Shown here piece after piece: positions 11,612-62,319 of a stretch of 64,000 bases of DNA. This DNA comes from Patescibacteria group bacterium. GTDB lineage: Bacteria; Patescibacteriota; Minisyncoccia; Phycocordibacterales; Phycocordibacteraceae. Where the stretch lies: contig JAIELV010000001.1 in assembly GCA_019752595.1 (NCBI GenBank), forward strand, positions 618,394-682,393. Reading direction: 5' to 3'. Every line of letters begins with the position of its first letter. Position 1 is the first letter of the stretch. A program made the position numbers and the translations under genes. Under the pieces are notes generated by a model. The model saw only the letters and a list, made by a program, of their open reading frames with translations, searched no databases and was not told the origin of the DNA.

Positions 11612-11618
11612 CTCAATC

Positions 11619-42719: not shown

Positions 42720-44648
42720 ATGCTGCCTGAAAACTCATTGAACGACGCTCAAAAAAAGGCAGTTCTCCATAAAAAAGGGGCACTCCTTATTCTCGCGGGG
42801 GCGGGAGCAGGCAAAACGAGAGTTATCACCCACAGAATTGCGGAATTAATCCGAAGCGGGATAAACCCTGGGGCAATTCTTGCGGTTACTTTTACTAACA
42901 AAGCGGCGAGCGAGATGCGCTCTAGGGTTTTGAAGCTAATTTCCGAAGATTTATCCCTTTCGCCCTACGACACCCCAAAAACACTCCCCTATATAGGTAC
43001 GTTCCATGCGGTTTCTCTGGAAATTATTAAGACATTCCACGAAAAGGCAGGACTCCCGCGCCGATTCTCAATATTCGACCGCTCCGACTCTGTACGTGCA
43101 TTGAAAGAAGCGATCTCTGAAGCTGGTTTTGATCCGAAACAACTTGAGCCCCGAAGGGTACTTTCAATTATGGGGCGCCACAAAGGTAACGCGGTTGACC
43201 TTGATGCATTCCGTGAGCGCTACGTGCGTTCATACATAGATGAAGCGGTTGCAGAAGTGTGGGAGAGGTATGAAAAAATTCTTGCAAAAGAAAAAGCGCT
43301 TGATTTTGATGACATTCTTTTGCGTGCATACCACTTAGTGGCGCGAAATCCTGAAGTACGAGAGTATTTTGAGCGCGCGTGGCAGTACGTACATGTGGAC
43401 GAGTACCAAGACACAAACCGTGTGCAGTACGAACTCGTGCGCCTCTTGTCGAAAAAAAGCGGGAACATTGCAGCGGTGGGAGACATTGACCAAAATATTT
43501 ACAGCTGGCGAGGTGCTTCGATTGAATTCATTATGAATTTTGAACAGGATTTCCCCGACGCGGAAATTGTGGTCTTGGCAGAAAACTATCGCTCAACAAA
43601 AACAATACTCGCAGCGGCAAATGATGCCATCGAAAAAAATATTCAACGTAAAGAAAAAGAGTTGTACACAAAAAACGCTGATGGGGAGAAAATAACGGTT
43701 GCAGGTTTTTATGACGAAACAGAAGAAGCGCGCTATGTTGCAAAAGAAGCAAAGTATTTATCGAACTACGGAGTGAAGCATGAAAACATCGCGGTCTTGT
43801 ATCGTGCAAACTTTCAATCACGCATTTTGGAAGAGGCGTTCCTCAAAGAAAATGTTCCCTATCAAGTATTGGGCACACGATTTTTTGAACGCAAAGAAGT
43901 AAAAGACGCTGTTTCGTATATTAAGCTTGCACTAAATCCTGACTCGAGTGCGGATTTTGCGCGCGCCATCGGCACACCTTCTCGAGGCATAGGAAAAGTG
44001 ACACTCGTCAAAGTGGTAAACGGAAAAGAAGAAGAACTACCCGCATCAGCGCGCAAAAAAATTCAGGATTTCCGCACGCTTCTTGCTCGCATACAAAATA
44101 AAATTGAGACCGCACAAACTTCTGAAGCAATTAAATTTGCGCTCCATGAAAGCGGACTATGGAATTTATACGCCCATGGTACAAGCGAAGACACGGAACG
44201 TTTGGAAAACTTAAAGGAGCTCGTTACGGTTGCCACAAAATATGACCACCTCGCGGCTCCAGAAGGAATTGAAAAATTAATTGAAGAAGCAGCGCTCCAA
44301 TCAGACCAAGACGAGCTCAAAGAAAAAAAGGTGGGTGTGAAATTGATGACTATTCACGCAGCAAAGGGGCTTGAATTTGAACGTGTGTTCATTACGGGGC
44401 TTGAAGAAGGGCTGTTCCCGCATGAGCGCGACGAAGCCGAAGGTGTGGATCATGAAGAAGAGCGTAGATTGTTTTATGTCGCACTCACGCGTGCGGAGAA
44501 AAAAGTATATTTAACGCATGCGGCAACGCGCAGAATTTTTGGTACTCGTTCAATCAATACGCCGTCAGAGTTTGTAGTCGAGCTTGATCCTGCGTTGGTA
44601 GAAGTCGTACCATTTGTAGGAAACTACCATGAAGAAACAATTGACTAG
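42720..44648 (+). CDS. uvrD: ATP-dependent DNA helicase PcrA/UvrD
   Basis: 642 aa with the SF1 motifs GAGAGKT, DEYQDTN and the others. Confidence 0.93.
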   Translation: MLPENSLNDAQKKAVLHKKGALLILAGAGAGKTRVITHRIAELIRSGINPGAILAVTFTNKAASEMRSRVLKLISEDLSLSPYDTPKTLPYIGTFHAVSLEIIKTFHEKAGLPRRFSIFDRSDSVRALKEAISEAGFDPKQLEPRRVLSIMGRHKGNAVDLDAFRERYVRSYIDEAVAEVWERYEKILAKEKALDFDDILLRAYHLVARNPEVREYFERAWQYVHVDEYQDTNRVQYELVRLLSKKSGNIAAVGDIDQNIYSWRGASIEFIMNFEQDFPDAEIVVLAENYRSTKTILAAANDAIEKNIQRKEKELYTKNADGEKITVAGFYDETEEARYVAKEAKYLSNYGVKHENIAVLYRANFQSRILEEAFLKENVPYQVLGTRFFERKEVKDAVSYIKLALNPDSSADFARAIGTPSRGIGKVTLVKVVNGKEEELPASARKKIQDFRTLLARIQNKIETAQTSEAIKFALHESGLWNLYAHGTSEDTERLENLKELVTVATKYDHLAAPEGIEKLIEEAALQSDQDELKEKKVGVKLMTIHAAKGLEFERVFITGLEEGLFPHERDEAEGVDHEEERRLFYVALTRAEKKVYLTHAATRRIFGTRSINTPSEFVVELDPALVEVVPFVGNYHEETID

Positions 44649-45429
44649 AAAGCGTGGGGCAAAGTTGGGGCAGCACTTCCTCACGAATGCGGGGATTGCT
44701 CGCATCGTTGCCGAAAGTTCTGGCGCAGGGGTAGGGGTTCGCGTCTATGAAATCGGCCCTGGGAAAGGGATGCTGACGAAAGAGCTCTTAGCGCTCGGTG
44801 CAGTAGTGACCGCCGTGGAGAAAGACCCCGAGATGGCTGAAATCCTTTGTGCAGAGTTTGTAGACGAGATACGAAAGAAAAAACTCATTGTTATAGAAGG
44901 TGACGCGCGCGACTACACTCCCGATACGGTATTCCCAAAAGGTGAGTACATTATTGCTGCAAACATTCCGTACTACATTACGGGGGAATTAATCAGAACA
45001 GCGCTCACCTCAAAAAACCAACCGAAAAGTATGGCTCTTTTGATTCAGAAAGAAGTCGCTGAAAGAATTGCTCGTTCAAAAAAAGAATCCCTGCTCTCGC
45101 TTTCCGTAAAAGCGTATGGCACTCCGAAATACGTAAAGACAGTATCTGCGGGGAGTTTTAATCCGCCTCCTGCAGTTGATTCAGCAGTGCTTTCAATTGG
45201 AAATATTTCTCGCGCACATTTTGCTACTGTTTCTGAAGACGTTTTCTTTCGTGTTATCAAAGCGGGTTTTGCACAGAAACGAAAAACACTTGGTGGTAAT
45301 TTGAAAAAAACATTCGGCGTAAAGGCGCTCGAGGCACTTGCGTATGCAGGAATCCCCGAAAAAGAGCGCGCAGAAAATGTGCCGCTCGCTTTGTGGTTAC
45401 GCGTGGCTGAAAAAATGCGCCAAACTTAG
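44629..45429 (+). CDS. rsmA: 16S rRNA (adenine1518/1519-N6)-dimethyltransferase
   Basis: 266 aa with the KsgA SAM-binding motif VYEIGPGKG and NIPY. Confidence 0.9.
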   Translation: MKKQLTRKRGAKLGQHFLTNAGIARIVAESSGAGVGVRVYEIGPGKGMLTKELLALGAVVTAVEKDPEMAEILCAEFVDEIRKKKLIVIEGDARDYTPDTVFPKGEYIIAANIPYYITGELIRTALTSKNQPKSMALLIQKEVAERIARSKKESLLSLSVKAYGTPKYVKTVSAGSFNPPPAVDSAVLSIGNISRAHFATVSEDVFFRVIKAGFAQKRKTLGGNLKKTFGVKALEALAYAGIPEKERAENVPLALWLRVAEKMRQT

Positions 45430-46067
45430 CGTACTAAGTTGCGAATCAAAACTCCTCCAGTAACATCTGCGTTGTCTTGAATGATGAGTTGTGTGGGTGA
45501 ACCAAAGTTCGACCCACCGAAATTTGAACCCCCGAATGGAGAACCGCCACCACCTGTAGGAAAGCCTGGCTGAGAAATAGGGAAGTTATACGGGGATGTA
45601 ATTCCTGGAAGAGTATTTACAGGATACAGGCGCTGTATGTCTGCGGGGCGAATAGCTGAGCCCCCGCCAGTACTCCCGCCGAGAAGCTGCTCTGCGCCTT
45701 GGCGCACCGCCTGCGCTGCGCGCTGAGCGCCCGATACGCTGTAGTAGCGCGCCACTCGTTCTTCACGTGTTGTTCCGTTACTCTTTGTGCACGTCGCTTT
45801 CCCCCCAAGGAGAACAAAAACGGTCTGCCCGTCTGCAGGCGCCACCCAGCGTGGCATGACGCGTGTTTTGCCTGTTTCAAAAATAAACGGGATTCCTTCC
45901 GACGTCGGCGATTTATAGATTGCCATTAGTTTACCGTTTATGTTTACACAATCTCCTTGATCGGTGACTGTCCCGCGGAAAATGCCACCCAACAGCCCCG
46001 CTGCCTCTGCGCTACTAGGAGCGAGTAGAACTACCACAAGAAAGAAAACCGCAACTATAGTCCTCAT
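45426..46067 (-). CDS. Secreted Gly-rich protein (hypothetical)
   Basis: 213 aa with a signal peptide and a Gly-rich C-terminal tail (GGSNFGGSNFG). Confidence 0.5.
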   Translation of the reverse strand: MRTIVAVFFLVVVLLAPSSAEAAGLLGGIFRGTVTDQGDCVNINGKLMAIYKSPTSEGIPFIFETGKTRVMPRWVAPADGQTVFVLLGGKATCTKSNGTTREERVARYYSVSGAQRAAQAVRQGAEQLLGGSTGGGSAIRPADIQRLYPVNTLPGITSPYNFPISQPGFPTGGGGSPFGGSNFGGSNFGSPTQLIIQDNADVTGGVLIRNLVR

Positions 46068-46456
46068 ATGCCCCCTATGCCTGGTAAAGAAGTGCCCGCA
46101 AATTGTATGGTTCCATCTTTAATATATATCGAGTAACACGTAGGGTATGCAATCATCCAGCAGTACGCTGGAGTCGCGTCTACTTTACCCAAGTGCTGAA
46201 CCGTGGGGATAATGTGGGTTCTATACGTATACTGCTTTGCCATCTGGGTCGGCATGTTTACCAAATATATCTTTGGCATAAAATTGTCTGAGAGGCCAAA
46301 AACCATAAAATCCCCGTATGAACAGGTGCATGGGAAAAAAGATTTTACATGGAACCCATAATCTTGGCTTAATCCAAGAAAAGCGTTTGTGCTTAAAGGA
46401 ACAAAGAAGGTAAGTAGAACGAGAATGCTGACGCCAAAAAACTTTCGGTAGTTCAT
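46064..46456 (-). CDS. Secreted Cys-containing protein (hypothetical)
   Basis: 130 aa with a signal peptide. Confidence 0.45.
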   Translation of the reverse strand: MNYRKFFGVSILVLLTFFVPLSTNAFLGLSQDYGFHVKSFFPCTCSYGDFMVFGLSDNFMPKIYLVNMPTQMAKQYTYRTHIIPTVQHLGKVDATPAYCWMIAYPTCYSIYIKDGTIQFAGTSLPGIGGI

Positions 46457-46547
46457 GTAAACAGTATGTCACATCCAAGGAATACTTTTTCACTTTTTAA
46501 ACTATATGTGCCTTTACGCATACATAAGGGCGGTATACTGAAAAGCA

Positions 46548-47414
46548 ATGGAAATCCGCAAAGGATGGGAGGTTGTTATTGGTGCGGCAGTGTTTGCTGT
46601 TCTTGCAATCGGCATAGCACTTGGCACATACTTCTTTGAAGGTAGCAAGACTATTGCAGGGGTAGAAGCTGGCGGACCCAATGATGCGGACCGCGATGGA
46701 CTCACGACTGCTGAAGAGCTTGCCTGGGGAACTGACCCAAATAATCCAGACACTGACGGCGACGGCATCGCGGATGGGGCAGAGGTAGATCTTCTCGCAA
46801 GCCCTACAATTGCAGGCTCAAGCATTAACCCTTTCGAGCGGGCGACAGACGAGCGAGTAGCAACGAGTGAGATTGTAGCGTATGGAATAGCGCAAGCTGC
46901 AATCGAGGCCGAAGCGGGCGAAGAACAAAACGCAAGTTCAATAGTTAGTAACCTTGCGAGAAGTATAGACCTGCCTATACTTGCGAAAAACATTACCGCC
47001 AAAGATCTGCGCGTCACTGAAGGTATGTCGATGAAGCTGTACGCGGAAATTGTGTACGAAATACTTAGGGAATCAGCAACCATACGCGAATCAGAACTTT
47101 CACTTTTCAGAAAAGCTGTCGATACAGGAAATTATTCAGGAACCCTAGCTCTCAAGGACGCCGCGCGCACCTATAAAGAAATGGAAGCGGCGCTCATTGG
47201 TATGCAGGTGCCACCGTCAGTGGTGAATGAACATATTGAGCTCGTGAATTCTATCGGGACGCTTGCAAACATTGTAAGTTCAATGGCTTCGTGGAGCGGG
47301 GATTCTTTTGCGGGGATTTTGTATACAGAAGCATTTTTCGCAACCGAACCCCGTATTGAAGCGGCAATCGAAGCTTTGGGTGAGAAAGTTTCATTAACAG
47401 TAACAACACCATGA
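46548..47414 (+). CDS. Membrane-anchored protein with thrombospondin-type-3-like Ca-binding repeats
   Basis: 288 aa with an N-terminal TM helix and DxDxDG-type repeats ([19 protein letters not shown]). It is the first gene of the T4SS-like cluster. Confidence 0.55.
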
Positions 47415-49339
47415 TTAAAAAAACCCTTGCAACGCTCCTCTGTGTGATTCTGCTTGTCCCCGCAGGTGTATTTGCAGACACTCACACTTCGACGGCAACG
47501 AAAGAGACCGTCTCGGGAACTAAAGAGCGAGTAACAGCAGCTGGGATTGCAGGGAAAGTAAATTGTGGAACCAGAAGAGGTGGGGCATTCCAGCGAGCAC
47601 TTTCTGAATACGGCGACCGCTTGGGGGACGCTGCCCTTAGTGGGATTGCTGACGGCGTTTCAGGACGAGGCGCGGTAGGCGATGCGCTGGGAGATATTCT
47701 TCGTGGCGGGGCTATCGGCGACATCGCTCGTGGGCTTGGGGATGATGCTAGTGATTTTTTGGGTGACTACGCGGGCGGTTTCGTAAGTGATCAAATAAGT
47801 GGCGCGTGCGGAGATTCTTCTCTCGGTCAGCGTATTTGCGGAAGAATTGGAAGCGCTGTTGGCGACTTCGTTGGGGATCAAGTAGAAAGAATCGGAGGGC
47901 AACTGATTTCCCAGGGGCTCGAACAGTTAGGCATTTCCCAGCTTGGCGGTCTCATGGGCGGGTTTGGAGGATTGCTGGGCGGAGGAGAGATAAAAACAAA
48001 AGAAGATGCCCTTCGGAGAACTACGAAAGATACATTGAAGGAGACGTCGCTCGACAGGAGAAATAGTGACACCCAAATTGCTAAAGTCTGTGATGCAGAC
48101 CCTCTGACGCGCAGTCTCGCTGAAGGACAAGCTAAAGCTGCGCAGGCAAAAGTTGTCGAGGTGGCTGCAGAGCAACTTGAAGATCCTGCCGTCGCACGAG
48201 AAACAGCCAGAACATCGGCTAAAGAGGCATATATTGAGAGTATTGCCGACCCTGAAGAGAAGCGCCTTGCGACACGCCTTGCAACGCAGCAAGGAAGTCA
48301 GGGCACACGGGCAAGTTGTGGAACGGGAGTCTTTGAACAGTTATTCAATGATGCAAACTGCAATGTAAAAGCCGCGCAAGTATTTAGTAACATTGGAAAA
48401 GCGGCGGCACAGGGGGAGACATCATACGGCCAATTGAAGGAAGCAACGTACAGCCCACAGGGTATCTGCACTGACGGACCAAATAAAGGCACCCGCAACC
48501 AACCAGAACTTTGCCCGACTCCAGGTCACTATAGGATTACCCTTCCTGGGGATGACGTAAAAAATCTTTCGCAAAAAGCCCAGCAACGCATCTTTGATAT
48601 TGATGCCGATGCTATAGGTGAAGCGGCGGACGATTTAGTTGCGGATTTAATTGATGAAATATTCACCGTTGCCGAAGATGAACTCGAAAGCGGATTACAA
48701 AGACTGGTGTCCAGGCGAGTGTCAGGTTCAGAGGGGCGTTCTGACGGAAGTTACGCTGACCGTCTTGCAGGAGTACGATCATCAGTGGCAACCACAGACG
48801 AGGGAAGAGAATATCTGAGTTCAAATCTTGCAAATTCAATCGCGATTGAAAGCACGTTCCAATCATTTTCTAACGAAGCGATTACAGATGTTTCCGTAAT
48901 AATTGGTGTCTTTGAACAAATAAAATCCTGCTATGCAAATCTTGCGCTCACTTCAAATCCAAACATTACCCCAGAAGAGGCACGCATACGTTCAGAAAAT
49001 GCTTCGTCTACAGTGAACAGCATTCTTCGTCCTCAGCTAGTGTCATTCCAAGAAAATTTTGAAGCATCGCAAGGCGTCGTCAGTGATTTAGGCATTCTTC
49101 TTGATGAAGCACAAACTGCAACAAACGCCACGGAGCTAAACGCGACCGCTGAAAGCTATGATGGTCTGGTGGCAGTAGGGCTTTTACGTTCTGACTCCGA
49201 CTTACAATTCTTTGTCGATGACGTACGGCAGTACTTAGCATCACTTGACCTTGCTCGCGAAGATGCAAATGCGCAATTAGCACAGTGCCAGCAGTACAGC
49301 GCTCCACCTTTCCCGATACCGATACCTCCTACGAACTAA
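47411..49339 (+). CDS. Large secreted Gly/Asp-rich protein (hypothetical)
   Basis: 642 aa with a signal peptide and reiterated GDxxGD / GxxGD motifs. Confidence 0.55.
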
Positions 49340-49486
49340 TTCTTGATGGGGATAACACGCAAAAACAGCTTCGTTAGGGGCTGTTTTTGCGCACAGTGTT
49401 TTCCACTGAACATGCGTGGGGCCGTTGACAACTACTCGTAAAAGGGATACGGTGATATTGACAGAGGGATTCATAAGTTTTCTTAT

Positions 49487-49987
49487 TTGCACTCTATGGC
49501 AAACGTAACACACCACGAGGGATACCATGATGAACGCCCTCACGGGCACCCAATCCGAAATACAGTCCTGGGAGGAATGGGTTTTTTGGCGGCACTCACT
49601 GGGGGAATGCAAGCGGGTAGTTATATTGAAAGAAACGGAGGAGACGTGCCCACAGCGACCCGCAACTTTTTGGCGGGCGTTAATGACAGAGCCCGTGGCA
49701 ATGCGCGAGTAACAGTTGCCCCAACAGATGAAGCTGCACTACTAACCCCAGAGCCTTTACAAGTGGCCCGTAGAGATCCTCCTTCTGGTATACAAAGTGC
49801 TGGTCAACACAGAGGAGAACCTGCATACAGGATTACACGCACGGACGAACGTGGGAGAACAGTTGTTCTTGAGTTTACACGTAGTACCGACCCTGGATAT
49901 CAGCAAGGTGCTGACGAGCGCAGATTTAATCTGCCTGCAGACGCCGATATTTACTACTGGTACTATCCTCCGCGACAATCCGAATAA
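49487..49987 (+). CDS. Hypothetical protein
   Basis: 166 aa with one predicted TM region. A terminator follows at 49997-50024. Confidence 0.4.
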   Translation: MHSMANVTHHEGYHDERPHGHPIRNTVLGGMGFLAALTGGMQAGSYIERNGGDVPTATRNFLAGVNDRARGNARVTVAPTDEAALLTPEPLQVARRDPPSGIQSAGQHRGEPAYRITRTDERGRTVVLEFTRSTDPGYQQGADERRFNLPADADIYYWYYPPRQSE

Positions 49988-49996
49988 AACTTTTTT

Positions 49997-50024
49997 AACC
50001 CCGCACACAGTGACGGGGTTTTTC
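49997..50024 (+). terminator. Rho-independent terminator
   Basis: aaccccg-cacacagtga-cggggtt followed by ttt. Confidence 0.7.
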
Positions 50025-50114
50025 AATACTGGAACGTCGTGCATATCTAAAGAGTTATTCTCAAAAAAAACAAAAAACCTGCTCGACGGGTAACAACGGG
50101 GATATAATGCTCAC

Positions 50115-53100
50115 ATGGCAATGCCTGCTACTTCGTGGCGAAATTTTTTCGTTTTCCTTCTTAATGGGATTATCGGGCTTTCAATCGTTTTCTCGATAGC
50201 AATACCTTTCGCTGAAGCAGCTCCTGTAGCTGACACGTCACGTGCCCGTCCCGCGTTTGAGAGCATGAGCGGGATAAGCGTTTTAAACCCGGCGTATACA
50301 CTCCTTCGTGGTATCCCCGATGGTTGGCGTTGCGGTCAGTTCTCCCAAAGTGAATCAGGGTGTTACGACACTACCAACCCAACAGGTTCTTGGGTCTATT
50401 TAACTTGTAGAAGTGAAACTGTTACGCCGCGGGCGGATATGCCTGATATTTCATACACGACATCCGAGTGCAGCATGTGGCGCGGAAGCGGTTCACAAAG
50501 TATCGATCGGGAGACTCTTACACAATTAGATTCGCCAGGCTCAATGTCTTGGGAAGTGCCAACAATTAACAGTGATGGGACTGTAGAGGTGGAGGAAGGG
50601 AGGGCTGGCGCTGCTGATATTGTCGCGTCGATTTTTGCAGGGGCAGGGAACTGGATTAGCGGAATTTTGATTGAGGCGGTCGCGTTGATTATCTGGTTCT
50701 TCAGCGAGATTTTAGTGTGGATGTTAAACGGTCTTCTCGCACTTGTCGCTTTGTTTTTCGACTACGTCGTCAGTGAGTTTGTTATAGAAATGGGTAAATA
50801 CATCACCGCTGATTCTTCGGGGGCGGTGCGCGACGCGTGGATCATTATTCGCGACCTTGCAAACATCGGCATTATTGCAGGCATGGTGGCAACCGCAATC
50901 GGCACCATTGTGGGGGTCGGGAACTACAGCATCAGTAAAACGCTGGCGCGCCTTATTCTTGCCGCACTACTAGTTAACTTCAGCTATTTTTTCGCTGGAG
51001 CAATTATCGACTTCTCAAACTTCACTGCAAAAGCCGCGTACGAAGCGGTGATTAAAAAAGCGGGGTGCGAAACGGACAGTTCCTGTGGGATTGCAAGCAG
51101 GACTGGCAAATTAATCAATTTCACAGGAATAAATGAAAGGGTGCAGGAAATTGCCGTGGGGGACGACGAAATGACGGCGCAAGGCGCTGAGCGAAGCGGT
51201 GAAACACGAGTCGGGAGGGAAACCTACACAACCGACAACGCCTTCATTCCTTCCCGTCAAGCAACATTCAATGTGATGTTGATTATCTTCATTCTCGTCA
51301 CCATGTTTGTGTTCTTGTCGGCAATCAGCCTCTTGATTGCACGTTTTGTTGCGCTCATATTCCTCCTCATTACGTCACCTATAGGTATTGCTGGATGGTC
51401 GGTCCCTCTTTTGAAAAGCTATTCGGACGAGTGGTGGAAAGCCTTGTCGAGCCAAGCAATGTTCGCGCCAGTCTATTTCCTTCTTGCAGGAATTTCTTTG
51501 AACATGTTGGATGCGTTTGCGGGACAGCTGAACTCAGACCCCGTTGGTCTCTCCTTGACGAGCTTTGCTTTGACTCGTTCGCTTGAGGGGATGATCCCCA
51601 TCATTGCGGTGTTTACTGTTGCAATCGGTTTCATGTGGGCCGCGCTTTCAACCGCAAAGAAAATGGCAGCAGCGAGCGAGCGATTCAAAGAGCTGTACGA
51701 TGGCGTACAAAAATACCTCACCAAGCCTGGCACTTACTTAGGTGGTATGGTCCTTCGTGACACAGTTGGTCGCGCAGCGGACTACGCTCGACTAAAACTC
51801 CCCGGTTTCACTAACCGAGTTTCAGAATGGAGCAAAGGAAAAGGAATGACACAATCCATCGGCAGAGCTGTAGGAAAATACACCGGCCTTGGTGGGTTTG
51901 TAAAAATGGGAGGACGGGCACTCGACCGTGCAGCCCAAAAGGGGTTTGAGAAAATTGCTGACCAAAAATTCTTCGGGGCTGAAGGTTATAAAAAGCTATA
52001 CGACGAAAAAGAAAAACGTAAAATCGACTTGGTGGCAAAAAAAGAGGCGCTGGAAAACGAGGATGATTTCGACGGACGAAAGGCGAAAAGAGAGTTGTTG
52101 GAAAAAGAGCGCAAGTTGAAAGAGGAGCAAAAGAGAACGTCCGCTGCTATTGCAGAGCTTGAAAAAGTCAGCGGTCGCACACCCGCACAAGACGCAAGCC
52201 TTGCTTCGTTGAGGGAGAAAAGGGAAAAGGAGAGAGCGGAACTTGCTGAAATAAATAAATTTAAAGAGAACCGCAAACGACACCCAAAGGATGGTGTTAC
52301 AAAAGAACATGGCGAACTGGTTGAAAGCTCGAGGCTGAATCAGCTGCACGCAGATAGACAAAATGTTATTGGTCAGGGCAAACTTTCCCCCGAAGAGGTC
52401 AAGCGACTTGAGGAGAAGGAAAAAAACAAAACGCTAACCGCGGCGGAAGGCAATCGTCTCCGTCTACACAGAGAGCATGGGGGTGATACCGCTAAACTTG
52501 ACGCTGAAATCGCGGAGGAGGAAGAATTTGAACAACAAAAAGATAAATACGGATGGGGCGGCGCTCAGGGGAGAATCCGTCGCGGAAAGGCAAAACAAGA
52601 TCGCGCGGTAGCGGCAGGAGAACGCATAGAAAATTTCAACGAGAGGGCGCACGCATCGGGGCTGGAAAAAATTGCTGCTGCTGCTGCGAAAGCGGCATTT
52701 AGTGAGCCTGATTTCAGTGCATGGCAAGCTTTGGAGCGGCAAGCGGCAGCAAACCCAGGCGCTTTCAGCGAGACTGACCCTGGTAAAAAGGGGGCTTTGC
52801 AGGTACGCCTTGAAAAATTCCGAGAACAAGCGGAAAACGCGTCCCGCATGAGCCCCGGGGATGAGAAGTCTTACCTGGAAGCGCTACAAACCCCCCCGTC
52901 TGAACGCACTCCCGATCAGGTTGCACTCGTTACCGACCCCAACAGAAAGCTAACAAGTGCGGAAGCCAAAGCCTCGGCCTATTATCGTGAACAAAAAACC
53001 GCAATCACGGAGGATACGAACACAAAATTGGATGCGGACATTAGGAGGCGAACGGCTGGAACGCTTACGGATAAAAAGAGGCTCGCCGAGATGGAAGTTC

Positions 53101-54797: not shown

Positions 54798-54814
54798 CCC
54801 CCTGAAACTAAGGC

Positions 54815-55804
54815 ATGAAAACCCCCACCAAAGAAGAGCAGTACGGAGCGCTTATAAAGGCCCCAAAACCTTTGAGGGATTTTATAGTGTCACCAACACT
54901 TCTACAGATTTACGGTGGAATAGAGAGGAAGCATAAATTTACACCTGCACAAATGCTTACTGTCTCTCAATTAGCAAATCTTACTCTTCTGGGATTTGAA
55001 AGCGAGACCGCTCTCGAAACAAACATCCACCAAATATTACCCGATTTGTCTCACACTACAACGGTTGAACTCGTTGCTGATATACATACTCGTGTTTTCA
55101 AAGAGGCGCAACGGCGGGTTGAAGAAAGTATCTTAGAACCGAGTGCCTACAGCAAAGCACTCGAGGAATCCGCAGCCCCAGCTGACCCTGAGTATACGAG
55201 AATAAACAACCTTGACGAAGATACCCCTGAATGGAGGGAGATGATAGGCAAGAAAATCGAAGAACAAAAGGCCGAACGAATGGCATTCCAAAAACAATAC
55301 GAAGAAAAAGTGCGAGAGCAAGCATCCGCGAGCGAAAACGCGGATGTCGAAGGGGTGGACATTGCTGATCTTGACGAAGATAATTGGCTTAAATCAAGGT
55401 ATGAACTAGAGTTAGAAGCGATTGAATCAGCGTTTCAAGAAAAAGTTGCTGTCCTTGAAAATGGAGAGGGGGCCCCGGCCGCAAGAACCATCTCTGCAGT
55501 TCAAGGGGGGCGGGATGGCGCTTACGAAAAGCCTGATAAATTGACTTTAAATGTTGTACAAATAACCCAGCCCGTCCCTGCCGAAGCCCCTGCGTCCTCA
55601 GTGTCTATTGCGCAACAAAAACTCAGCGTTCCGACAGCAGAGCAGAGCTCAACATCACAAGTTGAATCTGTCCTTGGACAACCAGGTATTTCCTCAGTCG
55701 AATTGCCAGTACCGTTGGACTCCACGACACAGAAAGCGAATGTAACTCCAATTCAGAAAAGACCCGAAAAAAGCAACGACCCGTACCGGGAATCCGTCGA
55801 CTAG
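54815..55804 (+). CDS. Acidic hypothetical protein, paralogous N-domain with the next gene
   Basis: 329 aa. Its N-terminal ~100 aa aligns with ORF 55823..56164. Confidence 0.45.
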   Translation: MKTPTKEEQYGALIKAPKPLRDFIVSPTLLQIYGGIERKHKFTPAQMLTVSQLANLTLLGFESETALETNIHQILPDLSHTTTVELVADIHTRVFKEAQRRVEESILEPSAYSKALEESAAPADPEYTRINNLDEDTPEWREMIGKKIEEQKAERMAFQKQYEEKVREQASASENADVEGVDIADLDEDNWLKSRYELELEAIESAFQEKVAVLENGEGAPAARTISAVQGGRDGAYEKPDKLTLNVVQITQPVPAEAPASSVSIAQQKLSVPTAEQSSTSQVESVLGQPGISSVELPVPLDSTTQKANVTPIQKRPEKSNDPYRESVD

Positions 55805-55822
55805 ACGGGGTAAAATACATAT

Positions 55823-56164
55823 ATGTTTTCATTTACACCCGAAGAAATAGCGGGCGCGAAATCAAGCGCCCCGAAAGTAATCACTGATTTTCTAGCATCG
55901 GCTGATTTCAAAAAAGAAATCTTCGCAATCAGTAAACAGCACACACTGAATTTACAGGGGATTGCAGAACTAAGCGACATTGTCACTTATATGCTCCTTG
56001 GGCTCATCCCGCAACATGAATTTGCAGGATACATACATTCTTCCCATATGCACCTCAGTCCTGAGGGCCAACGCATGCTTTTAAGCGAAGTTGATGCGAA
56101 GATTTTTAGCGAAATAAAAAGAAGACTCCAATCAGATACCACACCGAGAACTGAACAAGAGTAG
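55823..56164 (+). CDS. Hypothetical protein, paralogous to the N-domain of the preceding gene
   Basis: 113 aa. Confidence 0.45.
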   Translation: MFSFTPEEIAGAKSSAPKVITDFLASADFKKEIFAISKQHTLNLQGIAELSDIVTYMLLGLIPQHEFAGYIHSSHMHLSPEGQRMLLSEVDAKIFSEIKRRLQSDTTPRTEQE

Positions 56165-56229
56165 TGCTGGGCTTTTGCATCTCATACACCCTCGCCTACC
56201 GCAGTGAATTTTTAGTTTACAATTACAGT

Positions 56230-56661
56230 ATGCAATTTCAGGTTCCTCAGTTTATTGAGGTTGAAGATAAAATATTCGGCCCATTAACGGCAACCCAGTT
56301 TATTTACCTCGTTGGTGGAGGGGGGTTTGCCGTTGCAATGTGGCTCTTGTTACCACTATGGGCTGCGGTACTTATTGGAGGGCCCGTAGCAGGGCTCGGG
56401 GTGGCTCTTGCGTTTTACAAGGTAAACGACCGCCCGTTCATTCAAGTTATCGAAGCGGCGTTTCAGTATATTTTGAAGTCAAAGCTCTATATTTGGGAAC
56501 ATAAAAATGCCGAACCCTCGCCAGAGCAGGCGGCGGAACGCGACAACGACCCAGCAAAATTTGTGCCCGCAGCAACGGGTGACCGACTGAAAGATTTGGC
56601 ATGGAGTTTGGATGTGCAGGAAAAAACTCAGCGAGAAGGAATAGAACTCCCAAGAATATAA
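56230..56661 (+). CDS. PrgI/VirB3-like small membrane protein
   Basis: From MQFQVPQFIEVEDKIFGPLTATQFIYLVGGGG... there are two TM helices and a PrgI-type LT..Q motif. It lies immediately upstream of VirB4. Confidence 0.55.
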   Translation: MQFQVPQFIEVEDKIFGPLTATQFIYLVGGGGFAVAMWLLLPLWAAVLIGGPVAGLGVALAFYKVNDRPFIQVIEAAFQYILKSKLYIWEHKNAEPSPEQAAERDNDPAKFVPAATGDRLKDLAWSLDVQEKTQREGIELPRI

Positions 56662-56717
56662 GGGGCACGGAACCGAGAATTCACTCTGTGAAGTAAAACA
56701 TACCGTACACTACATAT

Positions 56718-57383
56718 ATGCCCCCCCAGCAAAAAAAGAAGAGCGCTGCCGCACAAGAATTTGTACCCGTAAAAGAGGTGCGTGGTGGCGTCATGATAAT
56801 GAAAGACGGCACACTCGTTGGGGCGCTACTGGCGTCTTCGGTTAACTTTGCCCTCAAATCAGAAGACGAACAGACAGCAATCATTGCACAGTTTCAAAAC
56901 TTCCTTAACTCCCTCGATTTTTCAGTTCAGCTTTTCATGCAGTCGCGAAAGCTCGACATACGCCCATACGTAGCCCTTCTTGATGAGCGCCTGAAAGCAC
57001 AAACAGAGGAGCTCATGAAAATACAAGTCCGAGAATACATAGAATTCGTGAAAACGTTTGTCGAGCAGGCAACCATCATGTCGAAGCGTTTTTTTGTAAT
57101 TGTTCCTTATTCGCCACCAGCACTAAACATACAGAAGGAGCTCCAGAGTAGGGTTTTTGGAAGCCCCGATGTTGAAATCGGAGCTAAGAAGGGGAGTTTT
57201 GAGGAACACCGCACACAACTTGAGCAACGTATGTCCATCGTCGCAGGGGGGCTTGCAGGGTGCGGGGTGCGCACCGCGCAACTAGGCACCGAAGAAATAA
57301 TTGAACTTCTCTACAAGGAATTTAACCCAGGGGAACTTGAAAAACCAATAACCCTGCAACAAAACGCGATACCGCAAAAATAA
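56718..57383 (+). CDS. VirB4-like ATPase, N-terminal domain as a separate ORF
   Basis: 221 aa. The segment VPVKEVRGGVMIMKDGTLVGALLASSVNFALKSEDEQTAIIAQFQNFLNSLDFSVQLF matches the conserved N-terminal region of Gram-positive VirB4 (PrgJ/TcpF). Its stop is 2 nt before the next ATG. Confidence 0.6.
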   Translation: MPPQQKKKSAAAQEFVPVKEVRGGVMIMKDGTLVGALLASSVNFALKSEDEQTAIIAQFQNFLNSLDFSVQLFMQSRKLDIRPYVALLDERLKAQTEELMKIQVREYIEFVKTFVEQATIMSKRFFVIVPYSPPALNIQKELQSRVFGSPDVEIGAKKGSFEEHRTQLEQRMSIVAGGLAGCGVRTAQLGTEEIIELLYKEFNPGELEKPITLQQNAIPQK

Positions 57384-57385
57384 CT

Positions 57386-59197
57386 ATGGATTTATTTGAC
57401 TTAATTTCAGGGAAAAAGCCAGAAGAGAAGCAGAAACTCACTCCGTTTTTGCCGAAAGACATTTACGAATCTGCGAAACTTGATTTCGCAGACATCATTG
57501 CGCCTTCAGCGCTCCAAATTACCCCGCGTGAAATGAACTTGGGAGACAAACTCGTGCGCACGTTCTACGTTATTTCGTATCCACGCTATCTTGCAGGAAG
57601 TTGGTTTTCGCCAATTATCAATCTCGACAAAGTGTTCGACATATCAGTATTTATTCACCCGATAGATACTGCCCAAATGCTGAGGCAATTCCAAAAGAGA
57701 GTTGCGGAGGTACAAAGTCAGATTATGAGCCGACAGGAGAAAGGCTTGGTGCGTGATCCAGTGTTGGATACCGCATACCAAGACATTGAAGGGCTGCGCG
57801 ACCAACTACAGCAAGCGCAGGAGCGCATTTTCGACGTGGGGCTTTACATTTCTATATATGGCGATAACCAGGAAGACTTAAACAAAACTGAATCAGAGGT
57901 TCGCTCGATGCTTGACTCAAAGCTCGTGTACGTAAAGCCAGCTCTTTTTCAACAAGAACAGGCATTTATGAGCATTGCACCTTTGGGGAAAGACGTGCTT
58001 TCGATTAACTCGAAGATGAATTCTTCTCCTCTCTCTTCTATTTTCCCATTCGTGTCTTTCGACCTCACCTCTGATAGGGGGATTCTCTACGGCATCAACC
58101 GCCACAATTCCTCTCTTATTTTGTTTGACCGATTTTCTCTTGAAAACTACAACTCCGTGGTATTCGCAAAGTCGGGCTCGGGTAAGTCATACGCAACCAA
58201 ACTCGAAATACTACGAACGCTAATGTTCGACACAGAAGTTATTGTTATCGACCCTGAAAGCGAATACGAATATCTGGCGAACGCCGTCGGCGGGAGATTT
58301 TTCAATATCTCACTCTCATCAGACAACCACATCAATCCGTTTGACCTCCCAACCCCACGTGAAGACGAGTCTCCATCTGACGTCTTGCGTTCAAACATCA
58401 TTAACCTTGTCGGGCTCTTCCGCATCATGCTCGGGAGCCTCACTCCTGAGGAAGACGCGATCGTAGACCGCGCGATTACTGAAACGTACGCCCTCAAAGA
58501 CATCACGGGCGAAACTGATTTCAAAAGCATGGAACCGCCGCTACTTTCTGACTTTGAGCTTGTGCTCGCGGGCATGGAGGGGTCGGAATCACTGGTTCAA
58601 CGCCTGAGTAAATACACCAAAGGTACGTGGGCGGGGTTTATTAACCGACCCACAAACGTCGACATCAACAAGAAGTTCGTTGCGTTCTCAGTTCGAAACA
58701 TGGAAGACGAGTTGAAGCCCGTGGCGATGTACATTGTGACGCACTTCATTTGGAATGCCGTCCGAAAAGAGCTCAAAAAGCGTCTGCTGGTTATTGACGA
58801 GGCGTGGTGGATGATGAAATCCGAAGATACTGCGTCATTCTTATATTCAATGGCAAAACGAGGTCGTAAATACTACCTGGGGCTTGCAACTATTACCCAA
58901 GACGTCGAGGACTTCTTGAAGAGCCCCTACGGTGGGCCGATGCTCACCAACTCATCAATTCAGATACTTTTAAAGCAGTCGCCGACCTCAATTGATGCCG
59001 TGCAAAAGACATTCAACCTAACTGACGAAGAAAAATATCTTCTACTAGAATCTGACGTCGGGGAGGGGATTTTCTTTGCAGGATTGAAGCACGTTTCCAT
59101 AAAAATTATCGCCTCATACACTGAAGACCAGATTATTACTTCGGACCCCTCGCAACTGTTGGCAATCGCGCGCGAACGAAAAGCGGCCCAAGAATAA
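57386..59197 (+). CDS. VirB4/TrbE/CagE-like conjugative ATPase, C-terminal NTPase domain
   Basis: 603 aa with Walker A FAKSGSGKSY, Walker B LLVIDEAWW and ATITQDVEDF. Confidence 0.8.
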   Translation: MDLFDLISGKKPEEKQKLTPFLPKDIYESAKLDFADIIAPSALQITPREMNLGDKLVRTFYVISYPRYLAGSWFSPIINLDKVFDISVFIHPIDTAQMLRQFQKRVAEVQSQIMSRQEKGLVRDPVLDTAYQDIEGLRDQLQQAQERIFDVGLYISIYGDNQEDLNKTESEVRSMLDSKLVYVKPALFQQEQAFMSIAPLGKDVLSINSKMNSSPLSSIFPFVSFDLTSDRGILYGINRHNSSLILFDRFSLENYNSVVFAKSGSGKSYATKLEILRTLMFDTEVIVIDPESEYEYLANAVGGRFFNISLSSDNHINPFDLPTPREDESPSDVLRSNIINLVGLFRIMLGSLTPEEDAIVDRAITETYALKDITGETDFKSMEPPLLSDFELVLAGMEGSESLVQRLSKYTKGTWAGFINRPTNVDINKKFVAFSVRNMEDELKPVAMYIVTHFIWNAVRKELKKRLLVIDEAWWMMKSEDTASFLYSMAKRGRKYYLGLATITQDVEDFLKSPYGGPMLTNSSIQILLKQSPTSIDAVQKTFNLTDEEKYLLLESDVGEGIFFAGLKHVSIKIIASYTEDQIITSDPSQLLAIARERKAAQE

Positions 59198-59266
59198 CGG
59201 CAGGCTTGCTTGCTGGATAAAAGTGCAGGTGTCCGCACGTGGGCTATATACTGTACAGAGAGCTCT

Positions 59267-60229
59267 ATGGCGAAAATTTTCGCATTACTTCTACTTTGCA
59301 TCGTGCCCGCTTCAGCGTTTGGTGCGGTGGTGCCTACAATTTCTTTGCGCCCCGTGATTAGCGCAAACCCAAGTTACCAAACTCCAAACGCTTCAGTGGT
59401 CCTTACTGCAATTGCCAAGGTCCCAAAAGGTGAAGTGACGTACACGTGGACCGTGGACGACGTGGAAATTGCCCGAGGTATCGATATAGACAAAATTACT
59501 CTCACTGCGGGGGCAGGGGGCAGTACAAAAGTAGTGCGTGTATTTTTGGTAGACGCGCAGGGGGCTGAGGGTGAAGCGCTGTACCTCATTCGCCCAGGCA
59601 GTGTGGATTTGGTGTGGGAAGGGAACACGTATATACCACCCTTGTACGCTGGGAAGGCCCTCCCCACGGGAGATTCGATGATACAAGTCCAAGCGCTCCC
59701 GCATATAGAAATAGGAAGTGGTCGCGTACCAAAAAATTCTCTTGTGTACACGTGGGAAGTTGAGGGACAGAAGCTTGAGGCGGCATCGGGCTTTGGGAAA
59801 TCCGTACTTCGCATTAAACCAACAAAACTTAAATACCAGACACGAGTTAGTGTTACTGCCTCAACTCCCGATGGCACTATAGGCGCGCGGGCATCGGCAA
59901 CCATACCACTCTATAATCCTGTCGTAGTGATTTATGAAGAAAAGCCCCTTTCGGGAACGTGGTACACACAAGCAACGCCAGCTATGACGACACTCTCTGC
60001 GGACGAAGTAGCATTTCGAGCGATCCCGTATTTTGTTCTTGACCCGAAGAGTGTTTCTTTCGTCTGGACTCTTTCAGGAGAACCGTTTGAAATTGATACC
60101 CCTGACCGTTCAATCGCAGTGTTCAGAAAAACGGGCGAGGGGGCAGGTGAATACCCTGTCGGTGTTACGATAGAAAAGCGCGACAGCCTCTTTGAGCGTG
60201 CTTCTTCAAGATTTGTTCTTTCATTCTAA
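59267..60229 (+). CDS. Secreted beta-rich (Ig-like repeat) protein (hypothetical)
   Basis: The signal peptide is MAKIFALLLLCIVPASAFG, and the internal halves are similar. Confidence 0.5.
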   Translation: MAKIFALLLLCIVPASAFGAVVPTISLRPVISANPSYQTPNASVVLTAIAKVPKGEVTYTWTVDDVEIARGIDIDKITLTAGAGGSTKVVRVFLVDAQGAEGEALYLIRPGSVDLVWEGNTYIPPLYAGKALPTGDSMIQVQALPHIEIGSGRVPKNSLVYTWEVEGQKLEAASGFGKSVLRIKPTKLKYQTRVSVTASTPDGTIGARASATIPLYNPVVVIYEEKPLSGTWYTQATPAMTTLSADEVAFRAIPYFVLDPKSVSFVWTLSGEPFEIDTPDRSIAVFRKTGEGAGEYPVGVTIEKRDSLFERASSRFVLSF

Positions 60230-60244
60230 TCTTTTTTCTTTCTC

Positions 60245-61132
60245 ATGAAAAAATTTAAAGCTCTCTGTGTCATCTCCTTGGTTGTTCTTACCTTTGTAAC
60301 TTCATTTGCTTTTGTTGAGGCATCACAATTTCAACCTATCGTCCCCATTCCTGGCGTAACTTCAGAGCAAGGAATTACGTTGACCTTCGCACAGTACGTA
60401 AATCAGATATTCAAGCTGGTGATTTCACTAAGCGCAATACTTGCGGTACTCGTAATTATTTACGGAGGATTTGAGTACATGACTTCCTCCGCAGGCATCA
60501 GCAAGAAAAACGGTATGGAGCGTATCCAGGGCGCAGTGACGGGGCTTTTCCTTCTTTTGTCTGTCACACTCATCTTGCAAATCATCAACCCGTGTATTTT
60601 GGAAATAACGGTTCTTTCGGGGACAACGTCCGAGCAATGCTCGCGCCAAGTGGCCGCAACCCAGGCGACAGGACAAGGTGTGGGCCAGGGGACGGGCCAA
60701 GGCACGGGACAGGGAACAGGACAAGGAGCGGGTCAGACTACTACGGAGCGCCCTTGTCAGGTTTCGGCCAGAGCGAGTACCTGCCCAAGTGGGGCCCCCA
60801 CCGTCGCAAGATGCGCGGCGGGCACTGTATACACTGATGTCCCTGCAACGGGGGGCTGTGTGGCCCCTGCAACAGGAATCGTGCATATCTGTGAAAATGC
60901 TTCTTGTGTGAGAGCCCCTGACCGAGACGGGGCGTGGCGTGTGGTAGCTTCTGAGACAACGCAGTGCCAGTCGAGTGGGGACCCAATACTCCCTGTGGCG
61001 CACTGTTGCACTATTCAGAACCCAACGTGGGCTCAATTTCTTGAAGAAACCTGCTCGGTGCGCACAGGAACCACCCAGTGTAGTGGGACCAAACCAAACA
61101 CGGTGTATATCTGTGGGGGACAATCAAGATAA
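60245..61132 (+). CDS. Candidate VirB2/TrbC-like pilin with a Cys-rich C-terminal domain
   Basis: 295 aa with a signal peptide and two hydrophobic helices (IFKLVISLSAILAVLVIIYGG and GAVTGLFLLLSVTLILQII). A (GQGT)n tandem repeat at 60665-60730 precedes a domain with at least 10 Cys. Confidence 0.45.
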   Translation: MKKFKALCVISLVVLTFVTSFAFVEASQFQPIVPIPGVTSEQGITLTFAQYVNQIFKLVISLSAILAVLVIIYGGFEYMTSSAGISKKNGMERIQGAVTGLFLLLSVTLILQIINPCILEITVLSGTTSEQCSRQVAATQATGQGVGQGTGQGTGQGTGQGAGQTTTERPCQVSARASTCPSGAPTVARCAAGTVYTDVPATGGCVAPATGIVHICENASCVRAPDRDGAWRVVASETTQCQSSGDPILPVAHCCTIQNPTWAQFLEETCSVRTGTTQCSGTKPNTVYICGGQSR

Positions 61133-61134
61133 GT

Positions 61135-62319
61135 ATGAAAATAAACAGAGGGGCAATCATCTTTATCGTCGTTCTCGGGGGCATCGCGCTCATTATTGTG
61201 GGGGTCATTGCGTTTTCTAATTTACTGAAACAGCCTTCGACAGGAACGGGGGGCGGGGTAGCTGATCTTTTCTCCTCACTGTTTCCGTTTGGTCAATCTG
61301 CTTCGCGCCCAAGTGAAAATGGAGCAGAGACAAACACCCCTGAAGATCTGGGTCCTGTGCCAACACTCAGAGAAGTGAGCCGCGGACCAGTAGCAGGATT
61401 TCGAGTATCAAATGCTGGGATACTGTACGTTGAGCAAAACACGGGTCATATTTTTCAAACACCGACTGAAAGTCTGGCTGTAACACGCCGAGCAAATACC
61501 ACATTCCCTGGCCTAGAGCGCGCGGTGTGGCTTTCAGACTCCGCGGTAATTTTCCAAAATATAGACACGGAAAAAACTGAAAATTTTCTTGTTTCTTTTG
61601 CAACCACTTCGGTGGACCAGCAAGTGAGTAGCAGACCACTCTCGAGTTTTAATTCGGTTGTGGCAGAGCCAAATCTTCAACTCATGGTGCTAACGCAGAG
61701 GGCGGGAGGTACCAGGATTTCAGTTTCAAGCTACGACGAAACACGTAAAGACACTGTATTTACTTCCCCGATGCTTTCGTGGCGCGCATTCCCTGCAGGA
61801 GATGACGTACTCGTTGAAACTACACCATCTGATGGTCTTGGTTTTTTGTACAGAATTCTTGGGGGCGGGGAGCTTGAGAAAATCGTGGGAAGTGTGCCAG
61901 GGCTCATGGCCGTCCCGCGTGCTGACGGGGCATATATTGCGGTCAGTTCGGTAAGCGGCACATCGGCTCGGCTCTCTTTTATAGACAAGGACGGAATCTT
62001 TGCGGGGGCATCGCCCATAGCCACATTTGCTGAGAAATGCGGGTGGTTCCCTGGAAACGAGCCTGCAGTTGCGTGCGGGGTACCAGAATCTGTAGCAGGC
62101 GCTTCCATAGATTCTTGGTATATGGGACTCCAAACATTTAGTGACACCGTGTGGATAATCCGCCCATCTAGTGAGACAGGTACGTTTATAAAAAATCTAG
62201 AGACGGAAGCGGGACGCCCGATTGATGTTATTGACCCGCACGTGAGCCCCGACGGGCGGTACTTCATTTTCAAAAACAAAAACGACCTTTCGTTGTGGTC
62301 GTTGGATTTAACTCGATAG
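61135..62319 (+). CDS. Membrane-anchored extracellular protein (hypothetical)
   Basis: 394 aa with an N-terminal TM helix; the remainder is probably beta-rich. Confidence 0.5.
   Translation: MKINRGAIIFIVVLGGIALIIVGVIAFSNLLKQPSTGTGGGVADLFSSLFPFGQSASRPSENGAETNTPEDLGPVPTLREVSRGPVAGFRVSNAGILYVEQNTGHIFQTPTESLAVTRRANTTFPGLERAVWLSDSAVIFQNIDTEKTENFLVSFATTSVDQQVSSRPLSSFNSVVAEPNLQLMVLTQRAGGTRISVSSYDETRKDTVFTSPMLSWRAFPAGDDVLVETTPSDGLGFLYRILGGGELEKIVGSVPGLMAVPRADGAYIAVSSVSGTSARLSFIDKDGIFAGASPIATFAEKCGWFPGNEPAVACGVPESVAGASIDSWYMGLQTFSDTVWIIRPSSETGTFIKNLETEAGRPIDVIDPHVSPDGRYFIFKNKNDLSLWSLDLTR

Follow-up and report, generated by a model that had tools for sequence, protein, structure and literature searches.

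What kind of machine is encoded by a cluster of type IV secretion system (T4SS)-like genes that has neither a relaxase nor a coupling protein beside it? This question is raised by a 64,000-nucleotide stretch of contig JAIELV010000001.1 from a Patescibacteria group bacterium (assembly GCA_019752595.1), referred to here as the window, in which an original prediction had placed a T4SS-like cluster at positions 45426-62319. The genes proved to be as described there, although we count 14 open reading frames (ORFs) where about 15 had been claimed. Our analysis suggests that the cluster is likely to be a Patescibacteria T4SS, descended from single-membrane MPF_FATA conjugation machinery and no longer a conjugation system. 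The likeness to T4SS-like machines of ultrasmall episymbionts that had been proposed for it agrees with the published Patescibacteria T4SS (Quinonero-Coronel et al. 2025, PMC12102498; Wang et al. 2023, PMC10633639). As a kind, a class and a neighbourhood this system is already described in papers from 2023 to 2025, and the present copy is an ordinary member. The minor new details are a protein family with a C-terminal DPYRE motif, here called the DPYRE-tail family, encoded between VirB6 and PrgI, and an unusually long VirB6.

The ATPase of the cluster had been predicted to be a VirB4, and its assignment is to that family and not to FtsK or HerA. It scores 373.5 bits against a cut-off of 325 on the NCBIfam model NF045971 ('VirB4-like conjugal transfer ATPase, CD1110 family') and matches P-loop_TraG (4e-26) and AAA_10 in Pfam, and both its Walker A (SGSGKS, residues 262-267) and Walker B (LLVIDE, residues 467-472) motifs are intact in translation. 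The next best NCBIfam model is the VirB4 of the Mycoplasma integrative and conjugative element (ICE), and the protein is 25% identical to PrgJ of pCF10 (E 1e-43). Compared with 72,556 plasmids, its best matches share 27-35% identity, come without exception from Bacillota or Actinomycetota and are in many cases annotated as CD1110 family. These data agree with a monoderm (MPF_FATA) ancestry of the system. A scan for VirB4 relatives with one genome per species confirmed at least 576, and the comparisons described below use the best 80 loci (L001-L080), in which VirB4 is 74-89% identical to that of the window. The published survey found VirB4 in 2,417 of 3,035 Patescibacteria genomes and placed 2,425 of 2,474 Patescibacteria VirB4 proteins in one clade nested in MPF_FATA (PMC12102498). 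Judged by its identities, the VirB4 described here very likely lies inside that clade.

The named lineages among the 80 loci all belong to Patescibacteria: they are Paceibacteria/Parcubacteria groups (such as Kaiser-, Zambryski-, Taylor-, Adler- and Nomurabacteria) and many generically labelled Saccharibacteria, with several loci given just as 'bacterium'. Many of the metagenome-assembled genomes (MAGs) named 'uncultured Candidatus Saccharibacteria bacterium' have 75-89% VirB4 identity and share their synteny with MAGs of Paceibacteria, Kaiserbacteria and Zambryskibacteria; the Saccharibacteria label on those MAGs looks generic or wrong.

The genes around virB4 encode the partners reported near it in the published survey, namely TrsD, PrgI/VirB3, VirB6 and VirB2-like pilins, for which PF18895 was used (PMC12102498). 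The TrsD-like ORF lies directly upstream of virB4, as it does in 76 of the 80 loci (median identity 56%), and also matches N-terminal positions of the VirB4 models NF045975 (97-244) and NF045971 (2-105). Since the ORF in this position matches both TrsD and the N-terminal part of VirB4 models, the ATPase is split, with a separate TrsD polypeptide resembling the VirB4 N-terminal region followed by VirB4, as in pGO1-type systems. The original prediction had recognised the ATPase and missed this split, leaving TrsD unnamed. The predicted PrgI/VirB3-like protein was confirmed: it is encoded two genes upstream of virB4, has one or two transmembrane (TM) segments and is present in 71 of the 80 loci with a median identity of 47%. 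Its relatives start with MRFxVPQFIDVEDKIFGP, which aligns from residue 23 of the window ORF, and the true start is probably the ATG at 56230. The VirB2-like pilin candidate also has its family match (Table 1), together with a weak match to the Mycoplasma ICE pilin-like model NF045849. Its gene is the second one downstream of virB4. The protein starts with a signal peptide and has two TM helices; a (GQGT)n linker, encoded by a 24-nucleotide tandem repeat (60662-60736), then leads to a C-terminal extension of ~130 residues whose domain holds 13 cysteines. Pilins of this family occur in 64 of the 80 loci and, because their median length is 289 residues, the long extension seems typical of these Paceibacteria pilins.

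The giant protein proposed to be VirB6/TrbL-like has no direct Pfam or NCBIfam match of its own, and its identification comes from its relatives and from modelling. Pfam TrbL is matched by 5 of 53 VirB6 orthologues from related loci (best 1.6e-7); two database homologues (P0017 and P0037), related to the VirB6 of the window at E ~1e-59 and ~1e-33, exceed the TrbL gathering score of 25.9, with 27.0 and 28.4; and a precomputed PF04610 match is found on 8 of 69 VirB6 homologues. When the family profile was compared with PDB sequences the best match, a weak one (E 0.037), was to TrwI/VirB6 of R388. The AlphaFold2 model has a predicted local distance difference test (pLDDT) score mostly above 85 in the TM core, and the top three Foldseek matches of this model are R388 TrwI/VirB6, with probabilities of 0.99-1.00. 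These sequence relationships and the predicted fold support the identification as VirB6, despite the missing direct family match. A comparison of the VirB6 family with the single PrgH sequence of pCF10 using hhalign was uninformative (probability 12%).

The N-terminus of VirB6 is signal-like; it is predicted to be followed by a small beta-rich extracellular domain, a TM core spanning roughly residues 170-530 and a long hydrophilic C-terminal region. At 1560 residues it is the longest among the 53 orthologues, the others measuring 608-1195. The C-terminal ~1000 residues (51975-54797 in the window) are hydrophilic, with 34% charged residues; within them, residues 1025-1312 have a counterpart in the C-terminal domain of other long orthologues, and the charged stretch at residues 620-1020 gave no match and has no internal repeats.

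Using tblastn and iterated hidden Markov model (HMM) searches of the 80 loci, we found that the same gene order recurs in related loci. It runs from rsmA through an optional small minus-strand gene to the TSP3 protein, the 642-aa (amino acid) family, VirB6 and the DPYRE-tail family, and on through PrgI, TrsD, VirB4, the Ig-like protein, the pilin and the propeller protein to an optional jag, yidC and rnpA. The ten-gene order is common to related Paceibacteria loci. Because the locus keeps a fixed position between housekeeping genes across these loci, it would appear to be inherited vertically rather than acquired by transfer. Within the same 35 genomes, median identity is 76% for VirB4, 57% for TrsD and 47% for PrgI, and 51%, 47% and 42% for uvrD, rsmA and yidC respectively. 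It falls to 27-35% for VirB6, the Ig-like protein, the pilin and the propeller protein, and to 25% for the TSP3 protein (11 of the 35 genomes). The adjacent housekeeping genes, jag included, span 42-51%, far below VirB4, and the surface components 25-35%. In every one of the 35 genomes VirB4 exceeds both rsmA and yidC in conservation, a within-genome comparison that is still fair even though the 80 loci were picked by VirB4 similarity. The pattern is that of a motor under strong selection and passed on vertically, whose surface parts evolve fast.

The Pfam neighbours on the left are uvrD/pcrA followed by rsmA/ksgA (together 42720-45429, with rsmA/ksgA at 44629-45429), and on the right jag, yidC and rnpA (62336-63995, of which jag and yidC take up 62336-63548), in accordance with the predicted location beside rsmA and the rnpA-yidC-jag origin region. 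In the syntenic relative L022, dnaA and dnaN follow directly after rnpA and the operon ends ~1.4 kb from dnaA. By this arrangement the locus adjoins the origin, and the cluster is chromosomal and origin-proximal, in a ksgA/rnpA/dnaA/dnaN neighbourhood of the Paceibacteria type. The published survey lists dnaA, dnaN, rnpA, ksgA and rpmH as T4SS neighbours in Paceibacteria and Microgenomatia (PMC12102498).

Nothing in the window marks the cluster as mobile. GC content is uniform at 0.46-0.50 across the window, with no shift at the cluster, and no direct (att-like) repeats flank it. There is no integrase in the cluster, the sole tyrosine recombinase in the window being a XerC/D-type gene at 31446-32408. 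The tRNA genes lie at 16.4-26.7 kb, the nearest (26.7 kb) being ~18.7 kb from the left end at 45426. With no integrase, near tRNA, flanking repeats or GC shift, the cluster is therefore not on a mobile element.

The genes for DNA processing are missing as well. When every ORF of the cluster and the large ORFs elsewhere in the window were scanned with Pfam, no VirD4/TraG coupling protein, relaxase or VirB11 came up, in agreement with the original prediction, which had reported these, an integrase and a flanking tRNA as absent. In tblastn searches none of 12 pCF10 Prg/Pcf proteins (the VirD4 PcfC, the relaxase PcfG, VirB1-, VirB8- and VirB6-like proteins, PrgI, PrgD-G and PcfA/B) had a match in the window or the 80 loci, a weak negative because BLAST is insensitive at such distance.

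How might such a machine work? By analogy with R388 cryo-electron microscopy and with VirB/Prg genetics, VirB4, with TrsD as its missing N-terminal part, would form a membrane-docked ATPase. PrgI would anchor this ATPase to the membrane, and VirB6 would provide the membrane channel or the base of a stalk. VirB4 could then pull the pilin from the membrane into a filament, the surface of which would be decorated by the Cys-rich C-terminal domain of the pilin. The fast-evolving Ig-like, propeller, TSP3 and 642-aa proteins may make up the wall-spanning and host-facing part, and the placement beside oriC would give a high gene dosage. Because there is no coupling protein and no relaxase, the best-supported activity would be to build a pilus or conduit that crosses the cell wall where the cell is in contact with its host. 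Its cargo is a wider choice, with uptake of host material or protein export both possible.

Several points weigh against this interpretation. The placement in the Patescibacteria clade rests on 74-89% identity to Patescibacteria proteins against at most 35% to plasmid VirB4s, and not on a tree. The missing coupling protein and relaxase are established for the 64-kb window and not for the whole genome. Nothing in these data shows the function, and the operon yielded neither a cargo nor an effector nor a DNA-handling protein. The wall-spanning architecture is a guess, because neither a VirB8-like nor a VirB1-like protein could be recognised in the cluster, and pilin polymerisation is only predicted in any Patescibacterium.

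Both of the main alternatives concern what the machine moves. The window contains neither a type IV coupling protein (T4CP) nor a relaxase, both of which are also missing from Helicobacter ComB and archaeal Ced, and the machine could, like these, bring in DNA or nucleotides from the host. The authors of the survey propose and favour the import of DNA or other macromolecules (PMC12102498), and the same idea is raised in a 2024 perspective that calls the role 'completely unknown' (PMC11665869). A uvrD/pcrA-type helicase is also a conserved upstream neighbour, and ComM lies ~5 kb upstream of the cluster. However, uvrD and rsmA are ordinary housekeeping neighbours, no DNA-binding or -processing protein was recognised inside the operon, and the CedB and CedD matches are confined to the P-loop region, well below family level (NF041017 CedB, 40.4 bits against 700; NF053655 CedD, 18.9 against 600). 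Genetic work on Southlakia epibionticum, a Saccharibacterium, points the same way. Transposon sequencing showed its T4SS and pilin array to be essential, a requirement shown for this organism alone, with coupling and relaxase proteins missing (PMC10633639), and a 2025 review gives the T4SS and pilins as essential and comEC as dispensable (PMC12857230). Cells of that organism that lose comEC can no longer be transformed but stay viable, while the T4SS is essential, so transformation does not run through the T4SS there. We regard DNA import as an unlikely explanation here. The machine might instead export effector proteins into or onto the host, relying on a distant coupling protein or, like the Ptl system of Bordetella and the VirB system of Brucella, on none. 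Wang et al. drew on the missing coupling and relaxase proteins to suggest protein export (PMC10633639). VirD4/coupling-protein homologues do occur in most Patescibacteria genomes, mostly far from virB4 (PMC12102498), and the conserved cytoplasmic DPYRE-tail protein could serve as adaptor or substrate. Against this, the window lacks a T4CP, S. epibionticum can do without its distal T4CP, and none of the 80 loci has candidate effector genes linked to the operon; export of effectors seems to us improbable to much the same degree.

The remaining explanations would keep the link to conjugation. If a relaxase, a coupling protein and an oriT lay elsewhere in the genome, the cluster could belong to a working conjugation system, as the family name 'conjugal transfer ATPase' and the few Patescibacteria that carry relaxases (109 in 103 of 3,035 genomes) might suggest. 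The same count, set against VirB4 in 2,417 genomes (PMC12102498), makes this very improbable, as does a locus fixed between housekeeping genes across related species-representative genomes, which indicates vertical inheritance. A T4SS gene set without DNA-processing genes might also be what is left of a decaying integrated conjugative element or genomic island. The conservation data already contradict this: the 80 loci share the position and the gene order, and VirB4 is better conserved than the housekeeping genes beside it. In addition, every ORF is intact, the packing is tight, and integrase, tRNA, att repeat and GC shift are all lacking. We therefore give decay hardly any credence, and retain a Patescibacteria T4SS no longer used for conjugation as the likely identity of the cluster.

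Table 1. Features of the T4SS locus, in window coordinates.
Feature	Position	Strand	Evidence or character
ORF, 213 aa	45426-46067	-	Single N-terminal hydrophobic signal-like segment, Gly-rich C-terminus; membership of the system unsupported
Small secreted/anchored protein, 130 aa	46064-46456	-	Divergent from operon; occasional companion
TSP3-repeat membrane-anchored protein, 288 aa	46548-47414	+	PF18884 TSP3_bac, 29.3 bits vs 25
Secreted protein, 642 aa	47411-49339	+	Gly/Asp-rich N-terminal half, helical-bundle C-terminal half
Gap, 775 bp	49340-50114		Sole ORF inside a doubtful one of 166 aa with TTG start, 49487-49987
Extended VirB6/TrbL-like polytopic membrane protein, 1560 aa	50115-54797	+	Orthologue Pfam matches, profile, structure model
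DPYRE-tail cytoplasmic protein, long form, 329 aa	54815-55804	+	No TM segment; between VirB6 and PrgI
Tandem paralogue of the 329-aa protein, 113 aa	55823-56164	+	N-terminal domain only, tail absent
PrgI family, VirB3 equivalent	56164-56661	+	PF12666, 39.2 bits vs gathering score 27
TrsD-like, 221 aa	56718-57383	+	NCBIfam NF041427 TrsD/TraD, 1e-6
VirB4 ATPase, MPF_FATA (monoderm) type	57386-59197	+	NCBIfam NF045971 and Pfam; Walker A/B intact
Ig/PKD-like membrane-anchored protein, 339 aa	59210-60229	+	Three Ig/PKD-like repeats, N-terminal TM segment
VirB2-like pilin, 295 aa	60245-61132	+	PF18895 T4SS_pilin, 30.6 bits vs 26.6
Beta-propeller candidate, membrane-anchored, 394 aa	61135-62319	+	Last operon gene; N-terminal TM segment

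Twelve of the 14 ORFs lie on the plus strand and two on the minus strand, and one, the TTG-start ORF, is doubtful. The plus-strand genes from 46548 to 62319 form a single tightly packed operon, in which ORFs overlap or are separated by 2-56 bp, except at the 775-bp gap. Five of its envelope or cytoplasmic products have no family assignment. The predicted extent of the cluster holds for this part and is unsupported at the start at 45426, where the 213-aa ORF has no Pfam match and no homologue in the 80 related loci, even by iterated HMM. The 130-aa protein has no Pfam match; iterated HMM searches find its gene in 17 of the 80 loci, where it invariably lies on the minus strand between rsmA and the TSP3 gene, ~8 kb ahead of virB4. 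The conserved system begins at 46548; counting the small minus-strand gene moves this boundary to 46064. Both minus-strand genes have signal-like N-termini and are transcribed divergently from the operon. An antisense ORF at 46514-47083 was rejected as spurious, being of low complexity and overlapping the conserved TSP3 gene. The 775-bp gap has no Rfam match, and the ORF inside it has no homologue in the 80 loci and no Pfam match. In relatives such as L002 the 642-aa homologue and the VirB6 gene are adjacent without this gap, which may represent the remains of an insertion, a gene specific to the lineage or regulatory sequence. Scans for regulatory signals were uninformative, with shuffled sequence giving more promoter-like sites than the real one; terminator-like sites, at about twice the shuffled mean, were scattered on both strands inside coding regions.

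The original prediction had also held that most components lack recognisable homology. This was overstated, as 5 of the 14 ORFs have a T4SS family and three more have recognisable domains or folds. One of these, the predicted TSP3-repeat calcium-binding membrane protein, is the first gene product of the conserved operon and does have the repeats and the N-terminal TM segment expected of it. Its TSP3 repeats are of the bacterial, calcium-binding type and are accompanied by a helical C-terminal domain; the family is found at the same position in 47 of the 80 loci and is sometimes duplicated. The 339-aa family lies directly downstream of virB4 in 71 of the 80 loci. The protein itself gives weak PKD matches, its relatives match PKD_6 (2.3e-7), Ig_3 and BiPBP_C, and the best PDB matches of the family profile are Ig-like (Hoc, 8e-4). 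The 394-aa protein is probably a TolB-like beta-propeller, given that the best PDB matches of its family profile are TolB propellers (E 0.004-0.007) and that two relatives contain weak PD40 repeats; the family is present in 59 of the 80 loci.

The 642-aa protein proved harder to place. It is identical to the NCBI hypothetical protein K2P56_03995 [Patescibacteria group bacterium], encoded on an 831-kb contig, and has no Pfam or PDB family, and its family is encoded on the plus strand immediately upstream of VirB6 in 49 of the 80 loci. Of the structure models that had been proposed as a check, the 1560-aa model gave the TrwI fold described above, whereas the 642-aa model, built from a 7-sequence alignment only, was poor (pLDDT 50). 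Its residues 460-630 alone reach 70-89 and match generic helical bundles. The position just before VirB6 had suggested a VirB5-like role for this protein, an idea that was dropped when the model offered only such bundles and no support. Single relatives carry add-on fn3, discoidin or Big_7 domains, which would fit a surface location.

The DPYRE-tail family occupies the position between VirB6 and PrgI in 62 of the 80 loci, with 68 of 69 copies on the plus strand. The 329-aa long form consists of a helical N-terminal domain of ~100 residues, a disordered Pro-rich linker and a C-terminal NDPYRESVD tail, and the 113-aa protein aligns with it and with its family. Within the last ten residues of the long form the DPYRE(P) motif is almost invariant. 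Across the 80 loci, 51 ORFs have DPYRE at the C-terminus; every one belongs to this family, and no other ORF of those loci has the motif there. An exhaustive search of 1.84 billion proteins yielded 77 family representatives, 60 of which have the motif; short tail-less forms of 106-119 residues are also among them. The family has no Pfam, NCBIfam or PDB match, a weak PDB match of its profile to 'CAM1' (E 0.029) being judged due to chance, and literature searches for 'DPYRE' returned unrelated matches only. It is a decidedly doubtful proposal that the T4SSs of Paceibacteria contain conserved uncatalogued parts of which this is one, with the linker-tethered DPYRE peptide docking on VirB4-TrsD and replacing the recruiting role of the coupling protein, or with the protein itself being a translocated substrate.

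Elsewhere in the window, a LysM and peptidase M23 protein is encoded at 41415-42419, 3 kb upstream of rsmA. M23/LysM domains are frequent among the VirB1 surrogates of the published survey (PMC12102498). A ComM (Mg-chelatase-like) protein is encoded at 39505-40998, upstream of uvrD/rsmA, and a small ORF at 39121-39495 has, by eye alone, the look of a DksA/TraR-type zinc finger. The only other secretion-superfamily ATPase is a PilB-like type IV pilus ATPase (T2SSE and MshEN, 1048-2784), unrelated to the T4SS cluster. These 64 kb of a small genome also contain four paralogous TrmB-family transcriptional regulators (7674-8447, 11583-12407, 29764-30480 and 33976-34740).

In the literature the Patescibacteria T4SS is described as the first T4SS found to be indispensable for the survival of the cell that carries it, and in the literature searched we found no functional or structural study of it later than the papers cited here. 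Solving its role would explain how a large share of bacterial diversity lives off host cells. The window adds no new kind of system to this problem; its value is comparative, in the ten-gene order and in the conservation of VirB4 set against fast-evolving surface parts, and the accessory families without assignment could guide structural and genetic work in cultivable relatives.

How, then, does the locus compare with known systems? With the MPF_T systems VirB/Trw of R388 (PDB 7O3V, 8RT9) it shares a TrwI fold predicted for the VirB6 TM core, the two-helix layout of the VirB2 pilin and the VirB3-VirB4-VirB6 module. It differs from them in its single membrane and in a VirB6 with a hydrophilic extension of ~1000 residues, and VirB5, B7, B8, B9, B10, B11 and D4 are not recognised here. 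Helicobacter pylori ComB and archaeal Ced resemble it in being chromosomal and in working without a relaxase or coupling protein. However, ComB possesses the VirB7-10 outer-membrane core, and Ced proteins match through the P-loop region alone, with no link of this operon to DNA seen. The MPF_FATA systems (pCF10 Prg/Pcf, pGO1/pSK41 Trs and CTn2 CD1110) also lack the outer-membrane core (VirB7/9/10) and have a CD1110-family VirB4, a PrgI-type VirB3 and, as in pGO1, a separate TrsD. Contrary to these, the present locus is not on a mobile element and includes a VirB2-like pilin, normally absent from monoderm systems; its VirB4 is just 25% identical to PrgJ, and the other 12 pCF10 Prg/Pcf proteins are without a BLAST match.

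The closest known system is the Patescibacteria-clade T4SS (PMC12102498; S. epibionticum SEML1_0006-0019, PMC10633639), from which the locus differs in some respects. One pilin gene is found here instead of the six-gene pilin array of S. epibionticum, no peptidase or lysozyme gene lies directly downstream of virB4 (the nearest LysM-M23 peptidase being outside the cluster), and at 1560 residues VirB6 is unusually long. The DPYRE-tail, Ig-like, propeller, 642-aa and TSP3 families are not named in those portions of the text of PMC12102498 and PMC10633639 that were consulted. In common with the clade, the locus is chromosomal and origin-proximal with ksgA, rnpA and dnaA as neighbours and has no relaxase or coupling protein nearby, and it shares with it the phylum and the core of VirB4, TrsD, PrgI/VirB3, VirB6 and PF18895 pilin.

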